A DNA stretch of 64,000 nucleotides from an uncultured Actinomycetota bacterium (GTDB taxonomy: Bacteria > Actinomycetota > Acidimicrobiia > Acidimicrobiales > RAAP-2). Each line of letters starts with the position of its first letter. The first letter of the stretch is position 1. The notes beneath the pieces are model-generated. The model was not told the origin of the DNA. It ran no database searches and saw only the letters and a program-made list of their open reading frames with translations. The position numbers and the translations under genes are program-made. Positions 321-17,004 of the stretch are shown in pieces. The stretch covers positions 243,416 to 307,415 of the forward strand of contig CAVPWU010000011.1 of the NCBI GenBank assembly GCA_963709665.1, read 5' to 3'.

Positions 321-1214
321 ACCTCGCGCCCTTCTTCCGGCGATAGGAGTCACTCGTCAGTCCCAAGAAAGTGCCTTCCAGAGAGACTTTCGGTAGATGT
401 GAGGGATCATCTCGGATGCGTGCGGTCCGTCATGGCCATGCGGCCGGATGCACGAAGTGGGGTTTTTCAGCATGAGGGAACCGGCGGATGGCATGGATCG
501 CTGGACGTATTCAATCGCCTTCGCCCCGCAGGCTGGCTGGCCCCCCTGGGCAGTCGAAAGTCGCTCTCCCGTCTCTCGCCAATGAGCGCTTGGTAGCTCT
601 GCCTGAGGCGCCTTGGGGGCAGTCCGGTCGAGATAGCGCTGTGCCTTGGCCCTGGACACCTCAATGGCACGGAGCTGTTCACTGAAGCGCTGTGCGTCGC
701 CATCGTCGTTCACAGCATGAGCCTAGGTGTACCGCTACCGATTTCTCGATTGTGTAGGTAAAGGACAGCGCAGACCCGGCGGTCCGGGACACTTGTTCCG
801 TCGGGTCCGTCCGGTGGACGTGACGAATCAGGGGCTAGGAGGACGTGCCTTCAGAACTTGCATGGCAATCACCGTCCCGACCGCGACAACGCCTACGAGA
901 CAGAGCGCGACCACCCACGGCCACTCGAAGAAGAACGAGGTGGTGATCATGGTCAACACGATAGCCAAGAGAACATTTTTCCGAAGGGACGTGGACCAAA
1001 ATGGAATGGGCTTGGACTCTGGATCTTGGGTCGGCCATTTTCGGCTTCTCGAAGTACTTCATCAGCTATCCGTGACAGCAGTGGGTGCCTCTTCACGTGG
1101 CGCGGCTATCCACACGCCCCGAGGTGTCGCAGCGGGGCAGCTCGCGAGCGGCAAGCACCCCGTCTTCGGATAACGCGCCCACAGTCGGCGTTGTGGGACG
1201 CTCTCCGAACTGCC

Positions 1215-6191: not shown

Positions 6192-6255
6192 TCGCCAGTC
6201 GGAAGTTCCTAGTCTCCGAACCGGCGGTCTGGGGCACTCTGTCCTGCCTCGCACC

Positions 6256-6984
6256 TCAGTGCGAATGGCCCACCAGAAGTGCGAACCCTCGCCAACGCCA
6301 CATGCAATCAACCTGCGACAGTCCGCCCTCTCGCATCCATAGGAGCTGGGATTCAACAGGGGCAAGTCGATCCTCAGGGTCATCATCAGCACGGCCTATG
6401 AGGTCCAGGAACTGGCGATGAAGCTCGGGTGTGGCTGAGGCGACTACTTCCAGATTGGCAAAGACACCTTCGTCGGTGAGTTGTCCAGCGACCTCACTGA
6501 AAAGCTCCCGCTTTCGCTCGTCCTCAACGTGGTGGATTGAGAATCCAGCGACAACAACATCGAACGAACCAAGTGGCGTGAGGGACTCCTCCAAACTCCA
6601 CTCTCGGAGCTGAACTCGATGATCGCCGTCGAATCGATCTCGAGCATGGCTGAGCATGGCGGGCGAGGAGTCGACGGCCAGAACCCTCTCGACGCTGCTT
6701 CGGTGTTCGAGCACCAGTGCAGCCAGCCTGCCGTCCCCACAACCCAGGTCGAGAACGGTGCGAGGTGAGGCAGGCAGCACCGACACCAGTACCTCCTCAC
6801 CTGCAGCCCGTGGGGCCAATCCACCAATCCGGGTCAGGTAGCGATCCACTCGATCAGGATCACTCCACGTTGCCGCCTGGGGGTTCTCGGGACCTGGTGG
6901 GATGGCCACCTCCAGATACTTACCGAAGGAGCGACCTGGCGCCCGTCCGCACCTGCCCCACTCGTGCCGTCTAGCCACGGTCAA
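6256..6984 (-). CDS. Class I SAM-dependent methyltransferase.
   Basis: Motif I is VLDLGCGDGRLA, followed by FDVVVAGFSIHHV. The start is taken at TTG 6984, preceded by GGAGAGGG, because the longer track ORF would overlap the upstream LLM gene. Confidence 0.75.
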   Translation of the reverse strand: MTVARRHEWGRCGRAPGRSFGKYLEVAIPPGPENPQAATWSDPDRVDRYLTRIGGLAPRAAGEEVLVSVLPASPRTVLDLGCGDGRLAALVLEHRSSVERVLAVDSSPAMLSHARDRFDGDHRVQLREWSLEESLTPLGSFDVVVAGFSIHHVEDERKRELFSEVAGQLTDEGVFANLEVVASATPELHRQFLDLIGRADDDPEDRLAPVESQLLWMREGGLSQVDCMWRWRGFALLVGHSH

Positions 6985-7024
6985 TAACTGACCCTCTCCC
7001 GGCGATCTGGGGCACCCCCCAATG

Positions 7025-8020
7025 TCAGGTCTGGCTCGCTGGAGAGCGAGGAACGGATGCCATCGTTCGAAGCTCTCGCTCGACATCGGGACCGGTCGGC
7101 GTGTAGATGATCTCCGTATAGCCTGCATCACCCAGACGGTCCAGCTGCCGCGTTATTCGGTCGGGCTCCCCGACCATCGACTTGATGTCGATGTGTGGGA
7201 GGAGTTGGCGGTCCCGATCGGGGAGATGGGTTGCGTGACCGTCGAACGTCAGCAGGTGTCGCTGGTTCGGGGGTGCCAGGGCCTCAAGGGCCTCACGCCA
7301 TGCCCGTCCACCGGGCAGATCGTCCACCGCCTCGGCACCTCCGTTGGCGTAGGCATTGTGCCAGTCGACAACCCGCCATGCCCCAATGGAATTCCGGACC
7401 CGGTCTGACCCTGGATCCTCGCCTGGCTCAAGCACAGTGCCGGACACGATCATGGCTGCCGGCAGGGTTGGGTGGGGCAAACCGATGATTCCATCGGCCG
7501 CTTCACCGGCCAGCGCACGTCCCCGTGGCCCGAAAACGCTCAGCCAGAGTGGGACAGCGACAGGCCGGGCCTCGGTCAGTCCGGGTGCGTGGAGCATCCG
7601 GGCGGGCGCTCCGTCAACCAATACGATCTCCCCGGCCAGAAGCTGCCGCAGGGCGGTCACGTATTCGACGAGGGCAGTGAGGGTCATCGCCCGCTGACCT
7701 ATGGCCAGGCGGGCAGTGAAGCCGGTGCCGAAGCACGCCCGGAGGCGGCCCCCCGAAATCCGGGCCACCGTGACTAGCGCCGAGGCCATGGCCATCACGG
7801 ATCGCTGAGTCGGGATCAACACGGCAGTGGCGAGGCCGATGCGCTCAGTCCTCTCGGCGGCGAGGGCAAGATGGACGAAGGGGTCCTCCCACAGCGGAGC
7901 GGAGTCGTAGATCCACACTCGGGCATAGCCGAGTTTCTCGGCGAGCACCGCCAGGTCGGCAAAGTTCGGTCCCGGAGGAAGCCCGCACGACAGCTCGAAC
8001 TTACCCATGACGCGATTCAC
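7025..8020 (-). CDS. LLM-class (luciferase-like) flavin/F420-dependent oxidoreductase.
   Basis: 331 aa with ...LAEKLGYARVWIYDSAPLWEDPFVHLALAAERTERIGLATAVLIP... typical of the luciferase-like monooxygenase fold. Confidence 0.8.
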   Translation of the reverse strand: MNRVMGKFELSCGLPPGPNFADLAVLAEKLGYARVWIYDSAPLWEDPFVHLALAAERTERIGLATAVLIPTQRSVMAMASALVTVARISGGRLRACFGTGFTARLAIGQRAMTLTALVEYVTALRQLLAGEIVLVDGAPARMLHAPGLTEARPVAVPLWLSVFGPRGRALAGEAADGIIGLPHPTLPAAMIVSGTVLEPGEDPGSDRVRNSIGAWRVVDWHNAYANGGAEAVDDLPGGRAWREALEALAPPNQRHLLTFDGHATHLPDRDRQLLPHIDIKSMVGEPDRITRQLDRLGDAGYTEIIYTPTGPDVERELRTMASVPRSPASQT

Positions 8021-8155
8021 GTTTCGGGGTTAGTGCCTCGGCATGGATGGCGTCGATCTCTATGTCCTCAAGGCCGCTCCACCACTGGTTGAAGATCAAC
8101 ATCGACGCAGTATCCCAGCATGGGGACGTGGTCTCACTCCCGGCGATCGGGGGAG

Positions 8156-8794
8156 CTACCCAGCATCCCCACACGCTCGGAAGGCATAGTCCGAGAGTTC
8201 ACGAACGTCGGCTCTGGTGGCCTCGTTTGATCGGACTGCCGCTGTCGCAGTGGATGATCCGGCTATGGCAACGAGCCTCCTGACTGTCGGCTGCAACGAA
8301 GCCGGAAGCGAGGAGACCAACCGACCAGCGCTGGCTTCGCTCATATCAACCGCCCTGACGATTGCCAGGCGGTCTGCGGGCGCCGGATCGGTCACTCCGT
8401 CCGTCAAGATGTTGATCCACTCGGGGCCGTCATCCGATGAACCGTCAGTGGCATCGAAGGACTGGAGTTCTCCGACGTTCACGCTATTCAACTGGTAACA
8501 GGGGTCGGGGCCGAGATTCGCGAGCGACTGCTTCGTAGCGAAGCTTGTTGCTCCGACTACCAGCACCACCAAGGGAACGGCGATGAGCCAACGGCGAGCT
8601 GGTGCCCAAACCAGGAGACACAGACCGATCAGACCGACACCGATGATGGCTGCGATGACCGACCAGGTAGGGAGTCCAAAGACTCCGGACGGAGGGGGCG
8701 GTTCGGTACGCATGTAGAGAACCGAGTCAAGAACTCCAACGACGATCACGGCCATGGCGGCGAGACAAAGAGCAACAAGGGTTTGCTCTTTCAT
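8156..8794 (-). CDS. Hypothetical integral membrane protein.
   Basis: 212 aa with three N-terminal hydrophobic segments followed by a soluble domain. Confidence 0.6.
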   Translation of the reverse strand: MKEQTLVALCLAAMAVIVVGVLDSVLYMRTEPPPPSGVFGLPTWSVIAAIIGVGLIGLCLLVWAPARRWLIAVPLVVLVVGATSFATKQSLANLGPDPCYQLNSVNVGELQSFDATDGSSDDGPEWINILTDGVTDPAPADRLAIVRAVDMSEASAGRLVSSLPASLQPTVRRLVAIAGSSTATAAVRSNEATRADVRELSDYAFRACGDAG

Positions 8795-8857
8795 TGGTCG
8801 TTGGCGAGAGATGGAGTCATCATTCCATCGGATTCCCTCCCTGTCCCGAATGTGTTG

Positions 8858-8890
8858 TTACACGGGTGATCCACGGGCCCTGGACCGAGG
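8858..8890. repeat. Left inverted repeat of E2.
   Basis: The sequence is TTACACGGGTGATCC-ACGG-GCCCTGGACCGAGG. It matches the reverse complement of 11291-11321 with a 15-nt exact core plus about 11/14 further matches and a 2-nt indel. Confidence 0.6.
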
Positions 8891-8905
8891 CCCATCGAAG
8901 CACAG

Positions 8906-10204
8906 TCAGCCGACGCCGTCGACGTCGTGGATGAGCTTCTCGAAGAGGACGATCCGGTCGCCCTGGTCGTGTTCGGCGGCGTGGTCTCGTTGGCGCTTCA
9001 GGATCGGGATGAACTGGGGACCGGTCTCGAAGAAGGTGCAACGCTCGCAGGCGGACTCGAAGGAGCAGCCCAAGGCGGCTGGGCGGGTGCACATCCCGTT
9101 GCCCAGCATCCTCCGATGGTCGGCCGCCAGTCGGCGCATGTTCGACCCGGCCGCATCGTCCGGAAGGGCTTCCGTTCTTCCGTAGTTGGCTTCGACGGCC
9201 TCGGTCACCCGGAAGTACTCGTCAGCCACCGTGCGGTCCGAGATCCGGGCATAGGTCATGGTCATCCGCATCGACCGGTGGCCGAGAAGGGCGGCGATCG
9301 CCTCCAGGCTCATGCCCCGGTTGATGGCTTGGGTGGCCAGGGTGTGGCGGAGCTGGTGGGGATGGACGTGTCCGACGCCGGCCCGCTTGGCGACCGCTTC
9401 GACATAGCGGTGGATGGTCCGGCGGTCGAAGGGTTGCCCGTCGTTGCGGACGACCAGATGGCCGGAATGGCTCGGCCCTCTGGTTCTCCGGTAGTCGGTG
9501 ATGAGGTCGACCAGGATGGGGTGGAGCGGCACGTAGCGGTCGTTGTGCAGCTTCCCCACTGGGATGCGCAGCCAGAAGGTCTCGCTGATCTGCACCATGG
9601 CGTCGTCCTCGAGAGCAGCCAGTTCCCCGACCCGCATGCCGGTTCTGGCCAGCAGTTCGACCATCAGTCGCCGACGAGGGTTGGGGTCGACACCCAGGGC
9701 GGCCATGAACCTGGCCATGGTGGGGTCGTCCAAGAACTTGGGCAACGGCTCGTCGGCCTTCGGGAAGTCCCCGGGAAAGATCGGCACCCGGGCCGGGGCG
9801 TCGTCATAGCCCCACTCGATGATCCGCTCGAAGAAGGTCCGGAGCAGCCCGAGGCGGTGCCGAATGGTGGTGGTCGAGAGCAGCTTCCCGCGTTTGCCGG
9901 GCCGGGCGGCCTGCCAGATCTTGAAGTCCTCGATGTGGCGCCGCTCGACATCGGCGACGGCCACGCACCACCGGTCGGCCTCGGTCACCCGGCCGGCGAA
10001 GAACCGCAGGGCGATGTCGAAGGCGGAGACGGTTCCGGGTCGGGCCGACACCGACAGCTGGTCCAGGTAGGTGGCCATGGTGGAGGCCATCAGGGGCGCA
10101 CGCTGGGCAATCTCTCCCCAGGTGATCTCCGGCCCAGCACCTCCGAAGCGTCGATTGACCGGCTCATCTGGCCCGTTGAGGGATGGGATCGCAAGCGCGG
10201 TCAT
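8906..10204 (-). CDS. Tyrosine recombinase/integrase with a C-terminal Cys-rich tail.
   Basis: The catalytic set is visible: ARTGMRVGE (R), VGKLHNDR (K), HQLRHT, LGHRS, TYARI (Y). The tail is CTRPAALGCSFESACERCTFFE. The ATG overlaps the upstream stop (ATGA at 10201-10204). Confidence 0.9.
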   Translation of the reverse strand: MTALAIPSLNGPDEPVNRRFGGAGPEITWGEIAQRAPLMASTMATYLDQLSVSARPGTVSAFDIALRFFAGRVTEADRWCVAVADVERRHIEDFKIWQAARPGKRGKLLSTTTIRHRLGLLRTFFERIIEWGYDDAPARVPIFPGDFPKADEPLPKFLDDPTMARFMAALGVDPNPRRRLMVELLARTGMRVGELAALEDDAMVQISETFWLRIPVGKLHNDRYVPLHPILVDLITDYRRTRGPSHSGHLVVRNDGQPFDRRTIHRYVEAVAKRAGVGHVHPHQLRHTLATQAINRGMSLEAIAALLGHRSMRMTMTYARISDRTVADEYFRVTEAVEANYGRTEALPDDAAGSNMRRLAADHRRMLGNGMCTRPAALGCSFESACERCTFFETGPQFIPILKRQRDHAAEHDQGDRIVLFEKLIHDVDGVG

Positions 10205-11244
10205 CGGGCCATCCCCACGTTCGCCTGGGCGTCGATGGCCTCGGCGGCCCGCCGATACTCGTTGGCCAGCCAGTCACCTCCGAGGTGGAGGTAGATCCGG
10301 GTGGAGGCGATCGACCGGTGTCCGGCCAGCGCCTGGATGGCCTCGATGGCCATGCCCGCCTCCTTCAGACGGGTGAAGCAGGTGTGGCGGAGCTCGTGGC
10401 AGGTCCCGTGGGTCAGGCCGACCCGGGCCCGGGCCGCCCCGAAGACCTCGTCGAGCCCGTCCGCCGACAGGGGAGCGCCCCGTCGGGGCTCCCGCAGCAC
10501 CACGAACAGCCGGTCGGTCGGGGCATCGGGCGGTCGTTCCCGGTTCAGGTAGTCAGCCACCGTGGCGAAGAAGGTCGAAGAGATGGGGACCAGGCGCTGG
10601 TGACCTCCCTTGCCCTCGGCGATGAACAGCTGCTTCTCGCCGACCCGCAGGTCCTCCAGGCGCAGACCCAGCACCTCGCAACGGCGGAGCCCGCCGAGCA
10701 ACATGGCCTGGGCCATGGCCCGGTCCCGATCGGTCCGGAACGACGACATCAGCAGCTCGACGTCGCCGGCGTCGAGGATCCGGGGCAGCCGTCGCACCCC
10801 TCGCACCAACGGCACACCCCGTTGGTCCCGATGACGGCTCCGTCGGGTGGGCATCCCCCGGGGGACCGGGTTGGCAGCCAGGGTGGTGTCTCCCCGGAGG
10901 ACCACGTAACCGAAGAAGGCCGACACCGCCGCCAGCCGTCGTTTGATGGTGGCCGGCGACAAACCGGACAGGCCGTCGCTGATCCGGACCACGTTGTCGA
11001 CTCCGGACCTCGAACGCTGCTGGGCGGCGATGAAGCCGAGGACGTCCTTCGGCGTCACCTCGGTGGGATCCTTGGTCACCACTCCGAAGAAGATCTTCAG
11101 GTCGTGGGCATAGGCCCGCACCGTGCTCGGTCGGCACCGCACCGACGCGAACTCGAGGAACTCATCGACCAGCTCGTGGCCGACTCGATAGGTCTTGTGA
11201 CCATCGGACCCGACAACACACTCGAATACCGGACTCCACTGCAC
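10201..11244 (-). CDS. Tyrosine recombinase/integrase (XerC/D-like size).
   Basis: The catalytic motifs are GGLRRCEV, EGKGGHQR, HELRHT, AGHRS and IYLHL. An N-terminal SAM-like core-binding domain is present. Confidence 0.9.
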   Translation of the reverse strand: MQWSPVFECVVGSDGHKTYRVGHELVDEFLEFASVRCRPSTVRAYAHDLKIFFGVVTKDPTEVTPKDVLGFIAAQQRSRSGVDNVVRISDGLSGLSPATIKRRLAAVSAFFGYVVLRGDTTLAANPVPRGMPTRRSRHRDQRGVPLVRGVRRLPRILDAGDVELLMSSFRTDRDRAMAQAMLLGGLRRCEVLGLRLEDLRVGEKQLFIAEGKGGHQRLVPISSTFFATVADYLNRERPPDAPTDRLFVVLREPRRGAPLSADGLDEVFGAARARVGLTHGTCHELRHTCFTRLKEAGMAIEAIQALAGHRSIASTRIYLHLGGDWLANEYRRAAEAIDAQANVGMAR

Positions 11245-11290
11245 GCCGCACCTCCTGGTTGGACTTCCACCCGAGGAAGGTTCCTCGTGT

Positions 11291-11351
11291 GGTCAGTCCA
11301 GAGGGCGGATCACCCGTGTAAGTGCCGTTCAGGGACGTTTCACCCGTGTAA
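11291..11351. repeat. Right inverted repeat of E2, plus a second direct copy of the 12-mer TCACCCGTGTAA.
   Basis: TCACCCGTGTAA occurs at 11310-11321 and again at 11340-11351, with 30-bp spacing. Confidence 0.6.
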
Positions 11352-11639
11352 TCGCGATATTGGGACGGACTGGGAGAATCGGTCAGTCGATAGTCCGCCG
11401 GCAAAGGGGATCTCCCACCGTCCCAACGTCACCCTCAATGTCATCCTCCGTGGTCAGGCGACGATTTCGACCCAGTGGTGGAAGGCTGGAAGCCCTCTGC
11501 CAAACGCCGCCAGCGCCAGTCCGGGTCCGATGGACAGTCCTGCCGTCCCCGCATCGCCCCCCGGCCACCTTGAACACGATTGCGAAGGGGGTCCCTTGGG
11601 GCTGAGGGCAGCTCTGGCCGGACTCGGGACACAGACACC

Positions 11640-12100
11640 ACTTGCGCCATGTCTTCTCCTCCGCAGCGGCTCCGGCTGGCGGGACGGTAACGCCGCACAA
11701 TGGAGTGCACTGATCGGATCCTGGCCGCCTCGCTCGACCTCCCGAACCGCACCGACCCCACAGCCATGGTGATGAGCCGAGCTCGGTTCTGACGACCGCA
11801 ACGGGCGTCCGGGGCGGGCATCGAGCCCGCCCCGACCGCGAGGTGGCGATGACAGACGCGTGGGGCCGGACCTGGACAACAAGTCCACACAGTTGCACCA
11901 GAGGATGCGGTCCCGATACGTCCTGTTTCGTCCCAGAATGCCGGGGTCCGCGAGCGGCAACGGCGAGCCCCGTGAGGCGCCTCCGGGTGTGGACTTCGTC
12001 GGTGCCACCTCGCATTCACCACCCCGTGTCGGTCGGGCCCCGGACCAGCGAGGGTGACGTTGTAGTGGGGGAGACGCATATTCGATTGGCTTGTATTCGA
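11640..12100. repeat. Left inverted arm of E1.
   Basis: Blocks shared in inverted orientation with the right arm are 12075-12100, 11883-11896, 11813-11831, 11761-11769 and 11645-11653. This arm has an extra ~165-nt segment (about 11897-12074) with no counterpart on the right. Confidence 0.55.
11813..11831. repeat. GC-rich hairpin repeat, copy in reverse orientation.
   Basis: The sequence is GGCGGGC-ATCGA-GCCCGCC. Its reverse complement matches 15443-15461, and the similar flank extends to about 30 nt. Confidence 0.5.
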
Positions 12101-12131
12101 GAGCCTGACCACTGGCGGTGGGGTTCGGCCA

Positions 12132-13574
12132 TCAGAAGTTGGTTGTCTGGCGAGCCTTGGCGGCGGCATAGGCGGCCCAGTCGGTGCCGAGGGCGGCGGC
12201 CCGGTTGGCGACGGTGTTGCGGTGGTAGCCGAGTGAGCCGGAGATCAAAGGGGCGGGGAGCGTGCCGATGAGTCGGGCCAGAGCCGCCTGGCGACCCGCT
12301 CGGGTGACGCCCAGCCCGGACAGCTGATGGGACAAGGCCCGACCCGACAGATGGCTGTCCGGGAAGTTGCCCGGGAACAGCCAATCGGCTGTTCCGGTCG
12401 GTGTTCGGGAGTCGAGCAGCTCGGTCAGCAACGCCGCCATCGGGGCCGGGAGCGGCACCGGATTGGCACCGAGGGTCAGGAAGATCTCCCCGTGGCGGTC
12501 CTCGATGTCGGCGAGGGTGAGATCGCAGATCCGGTTGACCGACTGGGCGAGTCCCAGCACCAGGCACCCGGCCAGTCGCCCGCGGAGGTTGATGCTGTCG
12601 TCGCCCAGGAGCTCGTCGAGCAGCCGCCGCCGGTCGGACTCCGGGCCCGGCGTGAAGGACCGGACCGGGGGCTTCGGGAAGCTGAGCGTCGGGCGCCGGT
12701 TGAGCCGCCCCACCCAGCGGATGAAGTCCTCGGCGGACCGGGGGTTGGAGGCGGTGGCGAACCAGGCATCAAGGTCGGATTGGGCGACGGTGGCAACCGT
12801 CCGGCCGCGGGTGGCCAACCAGCTCAGCCAACGGAGTCCGGCATTGGCCCGGTTCCGACAACCGGCGACCCAGCTGTAGGCCAGGGGGCCGTCTTGGGCC
12901 CGGTCGACCAGGTCCCGGTGGTGCCGCCAGACCAGGTAGGTGCGCAGCAGGCGCCGGTGCTCGGGGTCGCCGATCACCTCCAGGAAGCGCACGCTCCACC
13001 GCTCGAAGTTCCCGAGCTGGGTGTCCCGACGGTCGATGACGCCCGCCCCCATCAGCAGCTGGCGGAGGTAGTCGACCTCCCGGCCCGGCGGCAGCGAGTC
13101 CACGCCGGCATAGTCGAGGGTGACCGTGCCGTTGGCCAAGGTCCGGAGCCGGTCGGCGGTTCCTCCCCGGCTCAGCCAGATCAGCCGTGCCCAGGGTCGG
13201 CCGGTGGAGGTGATCAGCTCCACCAACGGCACCAACGCCGGGGTGACCTGGCCGGTCCCGTCGTCGAGGAGGGCGGCCAGCCGGCGCTGCAGCGAGCAGG
13301 CCAGGCAGGTGGCGGAGAACCACTGCTGGCCTTCGGCCCCACAGGTGGCGCAGAGGAACGAGCGGGGAATCGCCGCGGAGTCGACGCAGAGACCTGCTCC
13401 CTTCCCATCGCGCCCGGGCAGGAGCCGGTCGACCCCACAGCCCGCACACGGTCCTCGCCGCTGGACAGCGTGGCGCAGACAGGTCCGACACACCGGCCCC
13501 TCCGGCCAGGTCTGACACGCCCGCTGCGCCCGGTGGCAGCGGGCGCACTCCACCCGCTTGGCCGGGGCGGTCAC
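12132..13574 (-). CDS. Zn-ribbon-rich protein with a divergent tyrosine-recombinase-like C-terminal domain.
   Basis: GTG 13574 overlaps the upstream stop (GTGA). The N-terminus has five CxxC motifs (CARC, CRTC, CAGC, CATC, CLAC). The C-terminus reads ...NRICDLTLADI...LGYHRNTVANRAAALGTDWAAYA. It is integrase-like, but I cannot see the canonical HxxR box. Confidence 0.7.
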   Translation of the reverse strand: MTAPAKRVECARCHRAQRACQTWPEGPVCRTCLRHAVQRRGPCAGCGVDRLLPGRDGKGAGLCVDSAAIPRSFLCATCGAEGQQWFSATCLACSLQRRLAALLDDGTGQVTPALVPLVELITSTGRPWARLIWLSRGGTADRLRTLANGTVTLDYAGVDSLPPGREVDYLRQLLMGAGVIDRRDTQLGNFERWSVRFLEVIGDPEHRRLLRTYLVWRHHRDLVDRAQDGPLAYSWVAGCRNRANAGLRWLSWLATRGRTVATVAQSDLDAWFATASNPRSAEDFIRWVGRLNRRPTLSFPKPPVRSFTPGPESDRRRLLDELLGDDSINLRGRLAGCLVLGLAQSVNRICDLTLADIEDRHGEIFLTLGANPVPLPAPMAALLTELLDSRTPTGTADWLFPGNFPDSHLSGRALSHQLSGLGVTRAGRQAALARLIGTLPAPLISGSLGYHRNTVANRAAALGTDWAAYAAAKARQTTNF

Positions 13575-13900
13575 CGGTTCGGGTCGACCCGGGCCCGCCG
13601 GGGCCGCCGCCGGGCGGCCAGATCGATGGGGGGCGGATCGCCCTCGCCGGGCCGGGGCGGCAACCCGGCCGCCACCCCGATGAGGTCGGCGGGCGTGCAC
13701 GAGAAGATGTCACAGAGAGCAGCCAGGGTGGGGAGCGAGATGCGCTCGGGCACCCGGGCGGCCATCCGGTAGACCTGGGCGGTGGAGAGGTGGACGCCCC
13801 GGTCGGCCAGCAGCGGGAGCAGATCGGTGGTCTTCCAGACGCCGTGGGCGGCCATCACCTCCCGCAGCCGCCAGCTGTAGGTCACCGACCGGGTGGTCAC
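13571..13900 (-). CDS. XRE/Cro-type helix-turn-helix protein.
   Basis: GTG 13900 overlaps the recombinase stop (GTGA at 13897-13900). The HTH is HLSTAQVYRMAARVPERISLPTLAALCDIFSCTPADLI. Confidence 0.75.
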   Translation of the reverse strand: MTTRSVTYSWRLREVMAAHGVWKTTDLLPLLADRGVHLSTAQVYRMAARVPERISLPTLAALCDIFSCTPADLIGVAAGLPPRPGEGDPPPIDLAARRRPRRARVDPNR

Positions 13901-15009
13901 GATCCGGCCACCTTCCGGGATGGCCCCATCACCACGGCGTCCAGGGCGCTCCGCAGCATCCGGGTGCGGTAGTCGGAGGAGACCGAGGTGTAGATGGCGG
14001 TGGTGGAGGCGTGGCGGTGTCCCACCTGCTGCTGGACGAAGAGCACGTCGAAGCCGTCCTCGATCAGGTGGGTGACGTAGGAGTGGCGGAGGGAGTGCGG
14101 GCTGAGGGCGGTGTCCAGCCCGGCCTCTTTCGCCGCCGAAGCGAACGCCGAGTTGAGCCGGTCCTCGCTCACCCGGTCGTCCCGCTCCGAGGGCCACAGG
14201 CCCGCCGCCCCCTCCCGGCGGACCGAGGGCCAGATGTCCGTCGTCCACTCGTCCATCACCTCGGCCGTCCAGCCCATCACCGTGAGCACCCCCCGACGCC
14301 GGGGGCCCGACCCGTTGGCCGCCTTGCCGAAGCGGACCTGGCAGACCCCGAAGTCACCGAACTCGGGGGCCTGGGGGTTGGCCCCGAAGTCGTGGCGCTC
14401 GAGCATCACCACCTCCCGGCGGCGCAGGCCCCAGCCGTAGGCGACCTTCAGCATGGTGGCGTCCCGGAACGCCGGCACCCACCCCTTGCGGCCTCCCATC
14501 CGGATCCGGTCGGCCCGGGCGTCGGCGGCGTCGAACAGGTCCTGGCACTCGGCCCGGGTCATCGACCGTCGCCCGGGCCGGGCCTCGGCGTCGACCACGT
14601 GGGACATCGAATTGGCCCCCGAACAGATCTGGACGGGGTGGGTCCCGAAGCGGGTGAGGCACTCCCCGTCCCAGCCGTAGACGGGGTCGCAGACGTAGGC
14701 CAGAAAGCCCCGGAGGCTGAGCTGGTAGCTCCGGAGGGTGGACGGTGCCCGGTGCTCCATCCGCAGCTCTGCCGACCACGTCTCGAACCCGGCGGGTGTC
14801 CACGCCCAGGGGAACGACGACGCCGACTCCTGGAAGCGACGGACCACCCGGGCGCCGGCGTCGATGGTGGCGAACGACAGGCTCCGAGCCAGTTGCTGGG
14901 CCCGCCAACCGTCGAGCATCGCCTCGAACACCGCCGACTCGGGATCCAGCTCCACGACACCGTCGACCAGGCTCAGATGAGCCGCCCCGACCACGTTCCT
15001 GCCTTGCAC
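13897..15009 (-). CDS. Tyrosine recombinase/integrase.
   Basis: 370 aa with GWGLRRREV (R), FGKAANGSGPRRR (K), HSLRHS, VGHRH and IYTSV (Y). Confidence 0.9.
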   Translation of the reverse strand: MQGRNVVGAAHLSLVDGVVELDPESAVFEAMLDGWRAQQLARSLSFATIDAGARVVRRFQESASSFPWAWTPAGFETWSAELRMEHRAPSTLRSYQLSLRGFLAYVCDPVYGWDGECLTRFGTHPVQICSGANSMSHVVDAEARPGRRSMTRAECQDLFDAADARADRIRMGGRKGWVPAFRDATMLKVAYGWGLRRREVVMLERHDFGANPQAPEFGDFGVCQVRFGKAANGSGPRRRGVLTVMGWTAEVMDEWTTDIWPSVRREGAAGLWPSERDDRVSEDRLNSAFASAAKEAGLDTALSPHSLRHSYVTHLIEDGFDVLFVQQQVGHRHASTTAIYTSVSSDYRTRMLRSALDAVVMGPSRKVAGS

Positions 15010-15025
15010 AAGGCCACCCTTCGTG

Positions 15026-15063
15026 GTCGCAACTGACGCGCTGATTCGATCATCAGTTGCGAC
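15026..15063. promoter_or_regulatory. Perfect 11-bp inverted repeat just upstream of the E1 recombinase start. It could be an operator or a 5' hairpin.
   Basis: The repeat is GTCGCAACTGA (15026-15036), a 16-nt spacer, then TCAGTTGCGAC (15053-15063). It lies 17-54 nt upstream of start codon 15009. Confidence 0.4.
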
Positions 15064-15285
15064 TGAGACAAGGGATGCCTGGTCAGCGAGGTGAGGACCG
15101 GTGAACCCAACGTCACCCTCGACGTCACCTCACCGACGAACTGCCTGGTCACACGACAGAACGGGACCCGCCAACGAATACGCATCCATTCGAATATGCG
15201 GCAGTGGCATTGCCCAATGCAACTGTGTGGACATGACCCTCCAGCTTCAGTCGCACAACCAGGAAGTCACTACCCAAGGCGCCAC

Positions 15286-15304
15286 GGCGGGCTCAATGCC
15301 CGCC
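15286..15304. repeat. GC-rich hairpin repeat.
   Basis: GGCGGGC-TCAAT-GCCCGCC. Confidence 0.5.
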
Positions 15305-15442
15305 TGGGCGCCTCCTCGTGCCATGGGTGCGGGGAGGCTCCGTGAGGATCGCCAGGAGGTCGACCATCCCATGATGCACAGGTGTGGGAGTTCTCGTACG
15401 GCTCCGGCGACGCCGACCCTCTGCTTCCTCCTCGGCGGACAT

Positions 15443-15461
15443 GGCGGGCTCGATGCCCGCC
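15443..15461. repeat. GC-rich hairpin repeat.
   Basis: GGCGGGC-TCGAT-GCCCGCC followed by CGGGCCGCCC. The reverse complement of the 11.8-kb copy is followed by CCGGACGCCC. Confidence 0.5.
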
Positions 15462-15517
15462 CGGGCCGCCCTGGGGTGACCGGCGCCACGGCACTCCCCA
15501 ACGTTGGCCCCAGGGGC

Positions 15518-15940
15518 TTAGGCGGCAACGTGGAGGGCAATACCGAGCTCCTCGGTGGCACCAGCGAGAAGCCCTCCGACGTTCCGCTCCGAGCCGAACC
15601 ACAGGGCGCTCCCGTTGTGGAGTCCGGCGGCGAGCGTCTCGTCGATGAGCCACCCCCCGCCAAACCGGGCCCCAATCCGAGCTGCCTCATCGAGAAGGGG
15701 GCGGGGGTCGAGGATCTGCAGAACCTCCGGATGTGGGAACCGGAGCGTGTCACGATCAGTTGGCGTCAACGCAGCCAGTCTCCGGGAGAGCTGCCCACCA
15801 CCTGGTCCGTGGATGCGCTGCAGGAGCCGCCAGTGCCGGCTCGAGGAAGGACCGGGTCTTCGGTGTCGGGGAGGTCCGCTGGCCATCCGTCGCTGGCGAA
15901 ACACCACGCGGATGGCCAGGTACTCGTCGATCACGATCAT
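15518..15940 (-). CDS. Putative PIN-like toxin of a type II toxin-antitoxin pair.
   Basis: 140 aa starting MIVIDEYLAIRVV. It lies 21 nt downstream of a 62-aa ORF on the same strand. The assignment rests on size, organisation and the N-terminal motif only. Confidence 0.45.
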   Translation of the reverse strand: MIVIDEYLAIRVVFRQRRMASGPPRHRRPGPSSSRHWRLLQRIHGPGGGQLSRRLAALTPTDRDTLRFPHPEVLQILDPRPLLDEAARIGARFGGGWLIDETLAAGLHNGSALWFGSERNVGGLLAGATEELGIALHVAA

Positions 15941-15961
15941 CGCGACAGGTGGATGATCGAT

Positions 15962-16150
15962 TCAGTCGGCGTCTGCCTGGCCACCGAGAAGGGGATCCGC
16001 AGTCAGATCGGCGTCAAGTGCAGCCTGGAACTCCTCGGCCAGATCGCCCGTGGTGATCTGGGAGATGATCTTGCGACCTTCCTCGGTGACGCGGGGGTCT
16101 CCGGCCCGCCGGCGCAGGCGCTTCTGCTCGGTCAGGTCTGCAACGGCCAT
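15962..16150 (-). CDS. Putative antitoxin: a small acidic protein upstream of the PIN-like ORF.
   Basis: 62 aa with a basic N-terminus and an acidic C-terminus (..DADLTADPLLGGQADAD), in a typical TA gene arrangement. Confidence 0.4.
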   Translation of the reverse strand: MAVADLTEQKRLRRRAGDPRVTEEGRKIISQITTGDLAEEFQAALDADLTADPLLGGQADAD

Positions 16151-16285
16151 GGCCCAATTATGCCTGTCGGCCCCTCATTGCGCCACGGGTTCAGGGGCGG
16201 CAGTACTCCGCAATGTGCCTCGTCGAAGGATTTTGGGCGTGCTGGATCGGTACACTGAAGCAGACGATCTTCGCTGGCCCGACCG

Positions 16286-16315
16286 GTGTGTTGGGTCAGG
16301 TCCGACCCAACACAC
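16286..16315. other. Perfect 12-bp stem / 6-nt loop hairpin in otherwise non-coding DNA.
   Basis: GTGTGTTGGGTC-AGGTCC-GACCCAACACAC. Confidence 0.5.
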
Positions 16316-16517
16316 GCCCATCCTCGAGCTGACGGATTGGGATCGTCTGATCGCTGAGAATCCTGTTCTCAACCCAACTTTCAACCCAACAATTGCGTCT
16401 CAGCGTGTCACATCGCTCACCGCCCAGTTTCGAGGTCCGGTGGACCGAGGCGGTCGGACCTGGGAAAATGAGCCGGGCCGGGACGAGGTGTGACCTTGCG
16501 CGATTCTCGAGAGTCCT

Positions 16518-16559
16518 CTTGTAATCGTCAGGTCGTGGGTTCGATTCCCACCGCCGGCT
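16518..16559 (+). tRNA. Orphan 3' half of a tRNA-Thr(UGU)-like gene. It is not an intact tRNA and is probably an att-site remnant.
   Basis: The parts in order are CTTGTAA (anticodon loop, TGT), TCGTC, AGGTC (variable loop), GTGGG-TTCGATT-CCCAC (T arm), CGCCGGC (acceptor 3' strand) and T (discriminator). No GCCGGCG 5' acceptor strand, D arm or pairing 5' anticodon stem lies upstream. Confidence 0.6.
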
Positions 16560-16650
16560 CGCTGTCATCTCTCAAGAGATAGGCAACATCCGAACCCACG
16601 GCCTCACGAATTCCGGGGGCCGGCCGGGACCCCGGGGCCCCGGCGGCGGG

Positions 16651-17004
16651 TCACGGTGTGTCGATGGCCTCCCGGAGTGCGGCCAGGCGGTCACGGTTCA
16701 GCGAGTACCAGACCCAACGACCCCGCTTCTCGCCCTGGATGAGGCCGGCCTGGCTCAGGATCTTCAGGTGGTGGGAGATGGTGGGCTGCGACTTGCCGAG
16801 CGGGTCGACGAAATCGCACACGCACACCTCACCGCCGGAGGCGTCCGCCAACATGCTCAGGACCCGGAGCCGGACCGGGTCGGACAGCGCGCTGAACCCG
16901 GCAGCCAGCTCGGCGGCATCGGCCGCGCCCAGAGGGGCGGAGAGGACCGACGGGCAGCACCGGTCGACTGACCGGACCTCCGGTGCGGAGGTCGTCTCGG
17001 GCAT
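16651..17004 (-). CDS. ArsR/SmtB-family metalloregulator.
   Basis: The signature is LSDPVRLRVLSMLADASGGEVCVCDFVDPLGKSQPTISHHLKILSQAGLI. The start is taken at MPETT (17004). Confidence 0.85.
   Translation of the reverse strand: MPETTSAPEVRSVDRCCPSVLSAPLGAADAAELAAGFSALSDPVRLRVLSMLADASGGEVCVCDFVDPLGKSQPTISHHLKILSQAGLIQGEKRGRWVWYSLNRDRLAALREAIDTP

Follow-up and report, generated by a model that had tools for sequence, protein, structure and literature searches.

We analyzed a stretch of 64,000 nucleotides (the window) from the genome of an uncultured bacterium of the Actinomycetota (GenBank assembly GCA_963709665.1, contig CAVPWU010000011.1, positions 243,416 to 307,415). In it, two tyrosine recombinase genes lie between exact inverted repeats and make up an element that we call E2. 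The genome comprises 11 contigs and 3.86 Mb with a GC content of about 71%; contigs are cited by C numbers, the window being C11:243416-307415. E2 spans 2,470 bp (window positions 8852 to 11321), or 2,464 bp from repeat to repeat, and its features are listed in Table 1.

The E2 element and its copies

The original prediction, made from the letters of the window, held that the two recombinases are catalytically complete and coupled by an ATGA overlap and that the larger one carries a cysteine-rich tail. Open reading frames, Pfam searches, and catalytic residues confirmed the pair. The 347-amino-acid (aa) protein matched PF00589 (Phage_integrase; E value of 5.5e-30) and PF02899 (a SAM-like DNA-binding domain; 9e-7), and the 432-aa protein matched PF00589 (1.1e-29). 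Read from the sequence against the alignment, the catalytic set of the 347-aa protein is R187, K212, H283, R286, H309, and Y318. When the 432-aa protein was compared with 43 homologues, R191, K218, H283, R286, and H309 were invariant and Y318 was present in at least 90%. To judge by these residues, both recombinases are catalytically complete (R-K-H-R-H-Y). The tail was also found as described, with four conserved cysteines (C372, C380, C386, and C389). A Pfam search with the tail alone returned no family, and an AlphaFold model of the 432-aa protein was confident for the Xer-like core and uninformative for the Cys4 tail (pLDDT below 50). Both genes form one operon. Only 34 bp separate the stop codon from the inverted repeat; therefore, no third gene fits in E2. 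A search of the genome for tnpC/DUF6262 (PF19776) gave no match, a scan of E2 for promoters and terminators found none, and Rfam gave no match over window positions 8000 to 17000.

The predicted 15-nt terminal inverted repeat is exact. The similarity noted inward of this core is also real: it is a family trait, a subterminal motif (CYTGGACYGA) inverted at both ends, and between subfamilies both ends change in concert. We counted the 12-mer TCACCCGTGTAA, which forms part of the repeat, and found it only three times in the window, at 8858-8869 on the minus strand and at 11310-11321 and 11340-11351 on the plus strand. Shuffled sequences gave an expectation of 0.11, and none of 100 shuffles reached three. 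In the whole genome there are 12 occurrences against 0.13 expected from base composition, and all 12 are E2 ends or relics resembling E2 ends. The repeat is thus tied to E2-type ends and is not a common genomic repeat unrelated to the two genes.

The genome holds three E2 copies (A, B, and C) with common boundaries and 90 to 93% identity. When the three were aligned with their flanks, the shared stretch had GTGTTG-TTACACGGG at its left end and CCCGTGTAA-GTGCCG at its right end, with divergence beyond. Between copies A and C the dN/dS ratio was 0.14 for the 347-aa gene and 0.07 for the 432-aa gene; therefore, both genes are maintained by purifying selection. The search for additional copies that had been suggested thus yielded two in this genome, and it yielded relatives at many sites in metagenome-assembled genomes (MAGs) of the Acidimicrobiia. 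The pair was not found fixed at one conserved locus without repeats; rather, both site and copy number vary. E2 has inserted many times, at differing places. Together with the relatives described below, these data make it very probable that E2 is an autonomous, cargo-free transposable element belonging to a Tn554-related class of two-tyrosine-recombinase elements of the Actinomycetota.

Solo E2-type repeats were also observed at C3:624 and C5:117667. In both cases CCGTGGCATAA-GTGCCG and a target-like arm come next, and no recombinase genes lie nearby. These are likely truncated ends of lost family members.

Table 1. Coordinates of E2, its copies, and adjoining features (window positions unless a contig is given)
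Feature	Position	Strand	Remarks
Target half-site on the distal (432-aa gene) side, CTGTCCC-GAAT	8841-8851		Not part of the element; the three copies diverge here; fits the flank consensus
Element-borne distal hexamer CAACAC (GTGTTG on the plus strand)	8852-8857	-	Identical in all three genomic copies
Distal terminal inverted repeat TTACACGGGTGATCC	8858-8872		Exact, 15 nt; position kept in relatives, including pREL1
Distal subterminal motif GCCCTGGACCGAGG	8877-8890		Family consensus CYTGGACYGA
Large recombinase, TnpB-like, 432 aa	8906-10204	-	Xer-like core plus Cys4 tail of about 100 aa
Ordinary-size recombinase, TnpA-like, 347 aa	10201-11244	-	GTG start; stop overlaps the start of the next gene (ATGA)
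Predicted Shine-Dalgarno sequence AGGAGG	11251-11256	-	6 nt ahead of the GTG start; from sequence
Proximal subterminal motif GGTCAGTCCAGAGGGC	11291-11306		Inverted partner of 8877-8890
Proximal terminal inverted repeat GGATCACCCGTGTAA	11307-11321		Exact reverse complement of TTACACGGGTGATCC
Target-derived hexamer CGGCAC plus half-site CGTCCC-TGAA (gene orientation)	11322-11337		Also the first 16 nt of E4
Outer TCACCCGTGTAA, then TCGCGA, TATT, GGGACGG	11340-11368		Inside E4, outside E2; layout of a relic proximal junction
E2 copy A	8852-11321		Intact
E2 copy B	C11:233965-236454		93% identical; frameshifted
E2 copy C	C3:23341-25932		90% identical; intact
E4 stretches	11322-12062 and 15208-15465; C3:1-604; C10:104807-105389; C1:174629-175197		

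Target site and junction hexamers

Genome loci, the three E2 copies of this genome, and metagenomes scanned for the 15-mer supplied about 70 independent junctions, of which 34 distinct ones were upstream (at the first-gene end) and 36 distinct ones downstream. The target of E2 is a degenerate palindrome, GTGMCCC-NNAM-CGGCAC-NTNN-GGGKCAC. The upstream hexamer was CGGCAC in 30 of the 34 junctions, CGACAC in 2, and CGGCAG in 2. The downstream hexamer followed the subfamily: in subfamily 1, to which E2 belongs, it was CAACAC in 23 of 25 junctions and CAGCAC in 2, and in subfamily 2 it was CGGCAC (11 junctions). Outside the hexamers, the flanks of both sides fit one palindrome, GTGMCCC-NNAM-hexamer-NTNN-GGGKCAC. 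Upstream, the G was present in 31 of 34 junctions, each C of CCC in 28 to 31, and the A in 29; downstream, CCC was present in 25 to 31 of 36 junctions and the A at position -8 in 30. Insertion in E2's subfamily causes no target duplication.

The boundaries of the element are set by nearly identical copies in other genomes. One MAG carries three 100%-identical copies of the E2 family, and the identity begins and ends exactly at the hexamers. In another MAG, the two copies L012 and L013 align over 2,476 bp with 99.96% identity; only the upstream hexamer distinguishes them, being CGACAC in one and CGGCAC in the other. Because identical copies diverge exactly at the hexamers and L012 and L013 differ only there, the upstream hexamer is target-derived and CAACAC is element-borne. 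A more distant subfamily shows a like pattern: its upstream hexamer, NTCAYG, varies, and its downstream one, CTACAA, is constant. The proposal of a mobile two-recombinase element ending at the 15-nt repeats therefore stands with one amendment, which is that the element also includes one hexamer, CAACAC, beyond the distal repeat. The similarity further outward from the left core (TCCCTG..GAA.G), once taken as a hint of more distal termini, is instead the conserved target half-site; identical copies diverge at the hexamers.

Unoccupied sequences of this type were observed as well. The E4 copy on C10 has a well-formed, unoccupied target at C10:104819, CGTCCC-TGAA-CGGCAC-CAGT-GGGGCAC. An unoccupied fit to the E2 target, CTGCCCC-GCTG-CGACAC-CTCG-GGGCGTGTGGATAG, lies on the minus strand at window positions 1107 to 1140, and its arm GGGCGTGTGGATAA also flanks E2 copy C and relatives at three other metagenomic or MAG loci (L028, L045, and L079). 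The reverse complement of GGGCGTGTGGATAA contains TTATCCACA, which we take to be the Escherichia coli DnaA-box consensus. At six loci from relatives of the MAG that holds family member L031 (L187 to L192), a conserved repeat of about 70 nt, containing GGATTTCAGCGGGGTCTAGCGGACTCGGGCTCC and further on CTTGCAAGGGTTTCCTGCCCC, ends at an E2-family target arm; the target-like hexamer and arm come next in three of the six copies. We also considered whether the target is a common genomic palindrome. CCC-N4-CGGCAC-N4-GGG occurs 14 times in the genome, against 3 to 23 times for control hexamers, and so is not enriched.

Relatives and route of transposition

The 432-aa protein has more than 7,000 scored homologues, many of them 70 to 89% identical, and several stand alone on contigs of about 2.46 to 2.58 kb, that is, of the size of the element. 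The 45 related genome loci are mostly in Acidimicrobiia MAGs, with others in Terrabacter, Kineococcus, and Actinoplanes. Within the class, the distribution is patchy: 12 of 301 genomes have the tail-bearing recombinase. The closest plasmid relatives are pairs from Rhodococcus. On pREL1, a 341-aa gene overlaps a 611-aa gene; the 347-aa protein is 57% identical to the 341-aa partner over 322 aa, and the 432-aa protein is 52.7% identical to the 611-aa protein over 97% of the query, matching its C-terminal 421 aa only. The pREL1 pair has an exact 13-nt inverted repeat, TATGTGGGTGATC and GATCACCCACATA, at positions matching those of E2; therefore, the terminal inverted repeat characterizes the family. 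The three genes of a relative on pBD2 specify proteins of 360 aa and 564 aa and a 101-aa DUF6262 protein. To these, the E2 proteins are more distantly related (34% and an E value of 9e-42 between the 347-aa and 360-aa proteins; 32% and 5e-53 between the 432-aa and 564-aa proteins, with the Cys4 motif aligned). In longer sister proteins, of about 588 aa, the N-terminal DNA-binding domain is duplicated. In tblastn searches of plasmids with the tail alone, all matches were actinobacterial and none was from Staphylococcus.

These relationships bear out the suggested kinship with Tn554-type pairs, through homology to pREL1 and pBD2. The companion suggestion that a cargo-free pair is unusual did not hold, given the more than 7,000 homologues and an earlier description of the class by Van Houdt et al. 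in 2012 (PMC3414803). That work lists the pREL1 pair among the Tn554-related transposons of actinobacteria that lack TnpC and combine a short recombinase with a long one. The class joins a short Famint36 recombinase to a long Famint41 recombinase and includes pREL1 (Table 2 of that paper), pRHL2, pSCP1, pBD2, and others. E2 resembles it in having two adjacent, co-oriented, overlapping genes with the ordinary-size one first and no third gene, in its Actinomycetota host, and in the presence of several copies per genome. It differs in its second protein, which has 432 aa rather than 611 to 828 aa and no long N-terminal extension; its extra length is the C-terminal Cys4 tail. The ends, target, and hexamer behavior of the class are not described there. 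Thus, the gene-pair class of E2 was already known, and E2 is an ordinary, well-delimited member of it.

We compared E2 with three other kinds of elements. As in the Tn554 family of Staphylococcus and Enterococcus (tnpA, tnpB, and tnpC), an ordinary tyrosine recombinase is followed by a large one, the target is sequence specific, there is no target duplication, and a 6-bp unit is asymmetric at the junctions (PMC10214605). Unlike Tn554, E2 has no tnpC and no cargo, its 15-bp inverted repeats are perfect, and the 6 bp that persist are those away from the first gene. The elements called SEs (PMC10214605) likewise pair an ordinary with a large recombinase and have inverted repeats (13 to 19 bp, imperfect), a 6-bp joint spacer, the target's central 6 bp at the first-gene end, and 6 bp carried by the element at the other end. 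However, SEs have four core genes (intA, tfp, intB, and srap), whereas E2 has only two genes between its repeats. SEs also carry cargo (median, 15.7 kb), which E2 does not, and have been reported only in Gammaproteobacteria. In addition, SEs copy the first-gene-side hexamer into the joint, whereas E2's subfamily evidently keeps the distal one. RIT elements share with E2 a compact, cargo-free layout of overlapping tyrosine recombinase genes alone between inverted repeats, but they have three recombinases and longer repeats where E2 has two recombinases.

In the mechanism that we propose, the ends of E2 would be joined into a circular joint, repeat-CAACAC-repeat, which would have the form of a tyrosine recombinase core site, and at the hexamer this joint would recombine with the target. 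Two central bases distinguish CAACAC from CGGCAC, yet the two hexamers never mix; therefore, exchange would be effectively at one point. Two routes could produce such an outcome. In one, which has been proposed for SEs and is suspected for Tn554 (PMC10214605), a single strand is exchanged with strand bias and replication finishes the process; in the other, cleavage falls outside the heterologous positions. The element arms (TCACCC-GTGT-AA) and the target arms (TGMCCC-NN-AM) differ in spacing by 2 bp, which suggests that the two recombinases may each read one type of arm. The fullest version of this proposal is that E2 is the smallest autonomous tyrosine recombinase transposon (about 2.46 kb, two genes, and no helper), moving by strand-biased replicative exchange with retention of the opposite hexamer, one recombinase reading the element arms and the other the target arms, which are 2 bp shorter. 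We regard this version as speculative and rather unlikely to be right in all its parts.

The sorting of the hexamers also bears on whether E2 could be a classical integrative element of the lambda or integrative and conjugative element type, which would insert as a double-stranded circle by two reciprocal exchanges over a 6- to 8-bp overlap and leave an empty site behind, with neither strand bias nor replication. Its anatomy is attP-like, with two inverted arms around a 6-bp spacer, and the weaker palindrome around the target hexamer is attB-like. Subfamily 2, with CGGCAC at both junctions, looks as an identical overlap would, and the unoccupied target-like sites at C10:104819 and window positions 1107 to 1140 also agree with this explanation. 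However, the hexamers of subfamily 1 differ at two central positions, at which reciprocal exchange would give heteroduplexes and mixed outcomes. What we observed instead were about 25 junctions of each kind that were strictly sorted, CGGCAC (rarely CGACAC or CGGCAG) being proximal and CAACAC distal. We therefore hold a lambda-type route to be possible but doubtful. The inverted orientation of the repeats, which in simple site-specific recombination gives inversion, and the fact that both proteins score best with Xer models could point to a resident DNA inversion switch or a domesticated Xer-like pair, with the repeats as flipping sites and not transposon ends. Against this, the entire unit is found at unrelated loci with identical boundaries, within and between genomes, and the repeats enclose only the recombinase genes, which leaves nothing to be switched. 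Moreover, the scores are far under the curated cutoffs (125 to 128 bits against 335 for the XerC equivalog model and 106 to 108 bits against 330 for XerD). We give this explanation almost no credence.

It could further be supposed that E2 extends outward and that the second TCACCCGTGTAA, 30 bp further out, is an iterated recombinase-binding site, as the original prediction had it. The second copy does exist, and it lies at equal spacing in copies A and C. A matching arrangement of the outer 12-mer stands beside relatives L028 and L046 (another MAG), and subfamily 2 has a tandem copy of the repeat inside the element at this end. However, the outer 12-mer is missing from E2 copy B and from most relatives, and identical copies elsewhere diverge at the hexamer. 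The segment that contains it belongs to the repeat E4 and is present three times without E2 (C3:583, C10:104807, and C1:175183), where it is continuous with a longer repeat or a relaxase-bearing element. An iterated site of E2 is thus very unlikely. In gene orientation the outer unit reads CCGTCCC-AATA-TCGCGA-TTACACGGGTGA, that is, target arm, hexamer, and repeat start, and from this order it looks like an old upstream junction, a relic.

Several points weigh against E2 as an autonomous transposon related to Tn554. An orthologous empty site for L031 was sought in 40 relatives and none was found, and the unoccupied target-like sites described above are paralogous only. The E2 copies of this genome are 7 to 10% apart, one of them is decayed, and there is no direct sign of activity there. 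Four public soil runs, examined over window positions 8300 to 11900, gave sparse, low-coverage short contigs and no circular or excision joint. The roles given to each of the two recombinases are putative. On the Tn554 side, homology of the E2 proteins was shown to the actinobacterial pBD2 trio only, and the link from that trio to Tn554 rests on Van Houdt et al. (PMC3414803; data not shown there). Finally, in SEs and Tn554 the first-gene-side hexamer of the donor is copied to the far side of the next site (PMC10214605). This rule fails in E2, where the distal CAACAC persists rather than being copied from the proximal CGGCAC, and the analogy is therefore partial.

Pairs of this kind are annotated only as "integrase" or "XerD," and they break assemblies; the exact ends, target consensus, and hexamer rule given here make correct annotation possible. 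The 2023 study of SEs knew Tn554-related elements only from Staphylococcus and Enterococcus (PMC10214605), and the abundance of a two-gene relative in soil Actinomycetota extends this host range. As a simple experimental system, E2 could help to show how DNA is transposed by two tyrosine recombinases when no target duplication is made. If the strand-biased, two-protein route is true, E2 would be a minimal model of a poorly understood kind of transposition, in a phylum from which that route is unreported. The sorted hexamers are the one feature of E2 that deserves experiment.

The neighboring repeat E4 and the surrounding island

E4 starts exactly at the hexamer that adjoins E2. It is found without E2 at C3:604, C10:104807, and C1:175197, the last being more diverged. 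On C1 and C3, E4-like sequence forms the border of a segment that measures 5 kb or more and encodes a TrwC-type relaxase together with an AbiEi/AbiEii pair. Two of the three E2 copies are at this border, which seems to be favored for insertion.

The other recombinase genes, at window positions 12132 to 15009, are part of a different repeat that has ends and copies of its own. This 3.1-kb element (12063 to 15207) encodes a 370-aa recombinase and a 522-aa cysteine-rich recombinase-like protein, is inserted into E4, ends in GACGCATATTCGA and TCGAATATGCGGC, and has 99.5%-identical copies at C6:15288-18461 and C8:1-3144. We considered whether it is part of E2 or a split trio; the different ends and the 99.5% copies of its own rule this out. 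The 3.1-kb element is inserted immediately after a GGTGACGT-type word. Several mobile segments have iterated words of this type (GAGGGTGACGTTG and its variants) at their edges, at window positions 11425 to 11437 and 12050 to 12062, at C3:31023-31111, and inside the right end of the 3.1-kb element itself. GAGGGTGACGTTG was rejected as a specific boundary motif because coding repeats contain it too often.

An exact 44-nt direct repeat that includes a tRNA-Thr 3' remnant occurs at window positions 16518 to 16561 and at C11:232133-232176. It brackets about 27.8 kb, and E2 copies A and B both lie inside this span, which is probably a tRNA-Thr-integrated island full of nested mobile elements. For this genome, E2 is an ordinary selfish element in that island. 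Window positions 6221 to 7006 match C3:19405-20190, a few kilobases from E2 copy C, over 786 bp at 99.6% identity; the island and the C3 region have recently exchanged DNA, though their E2 copies differ by 10%. At the start of the window, positions 1 to 320 match dozens of loci on most contigs at 66 to 82% identity in steps of about 126 bp, and this stretch is probably a repeated protein-domain coding unit.

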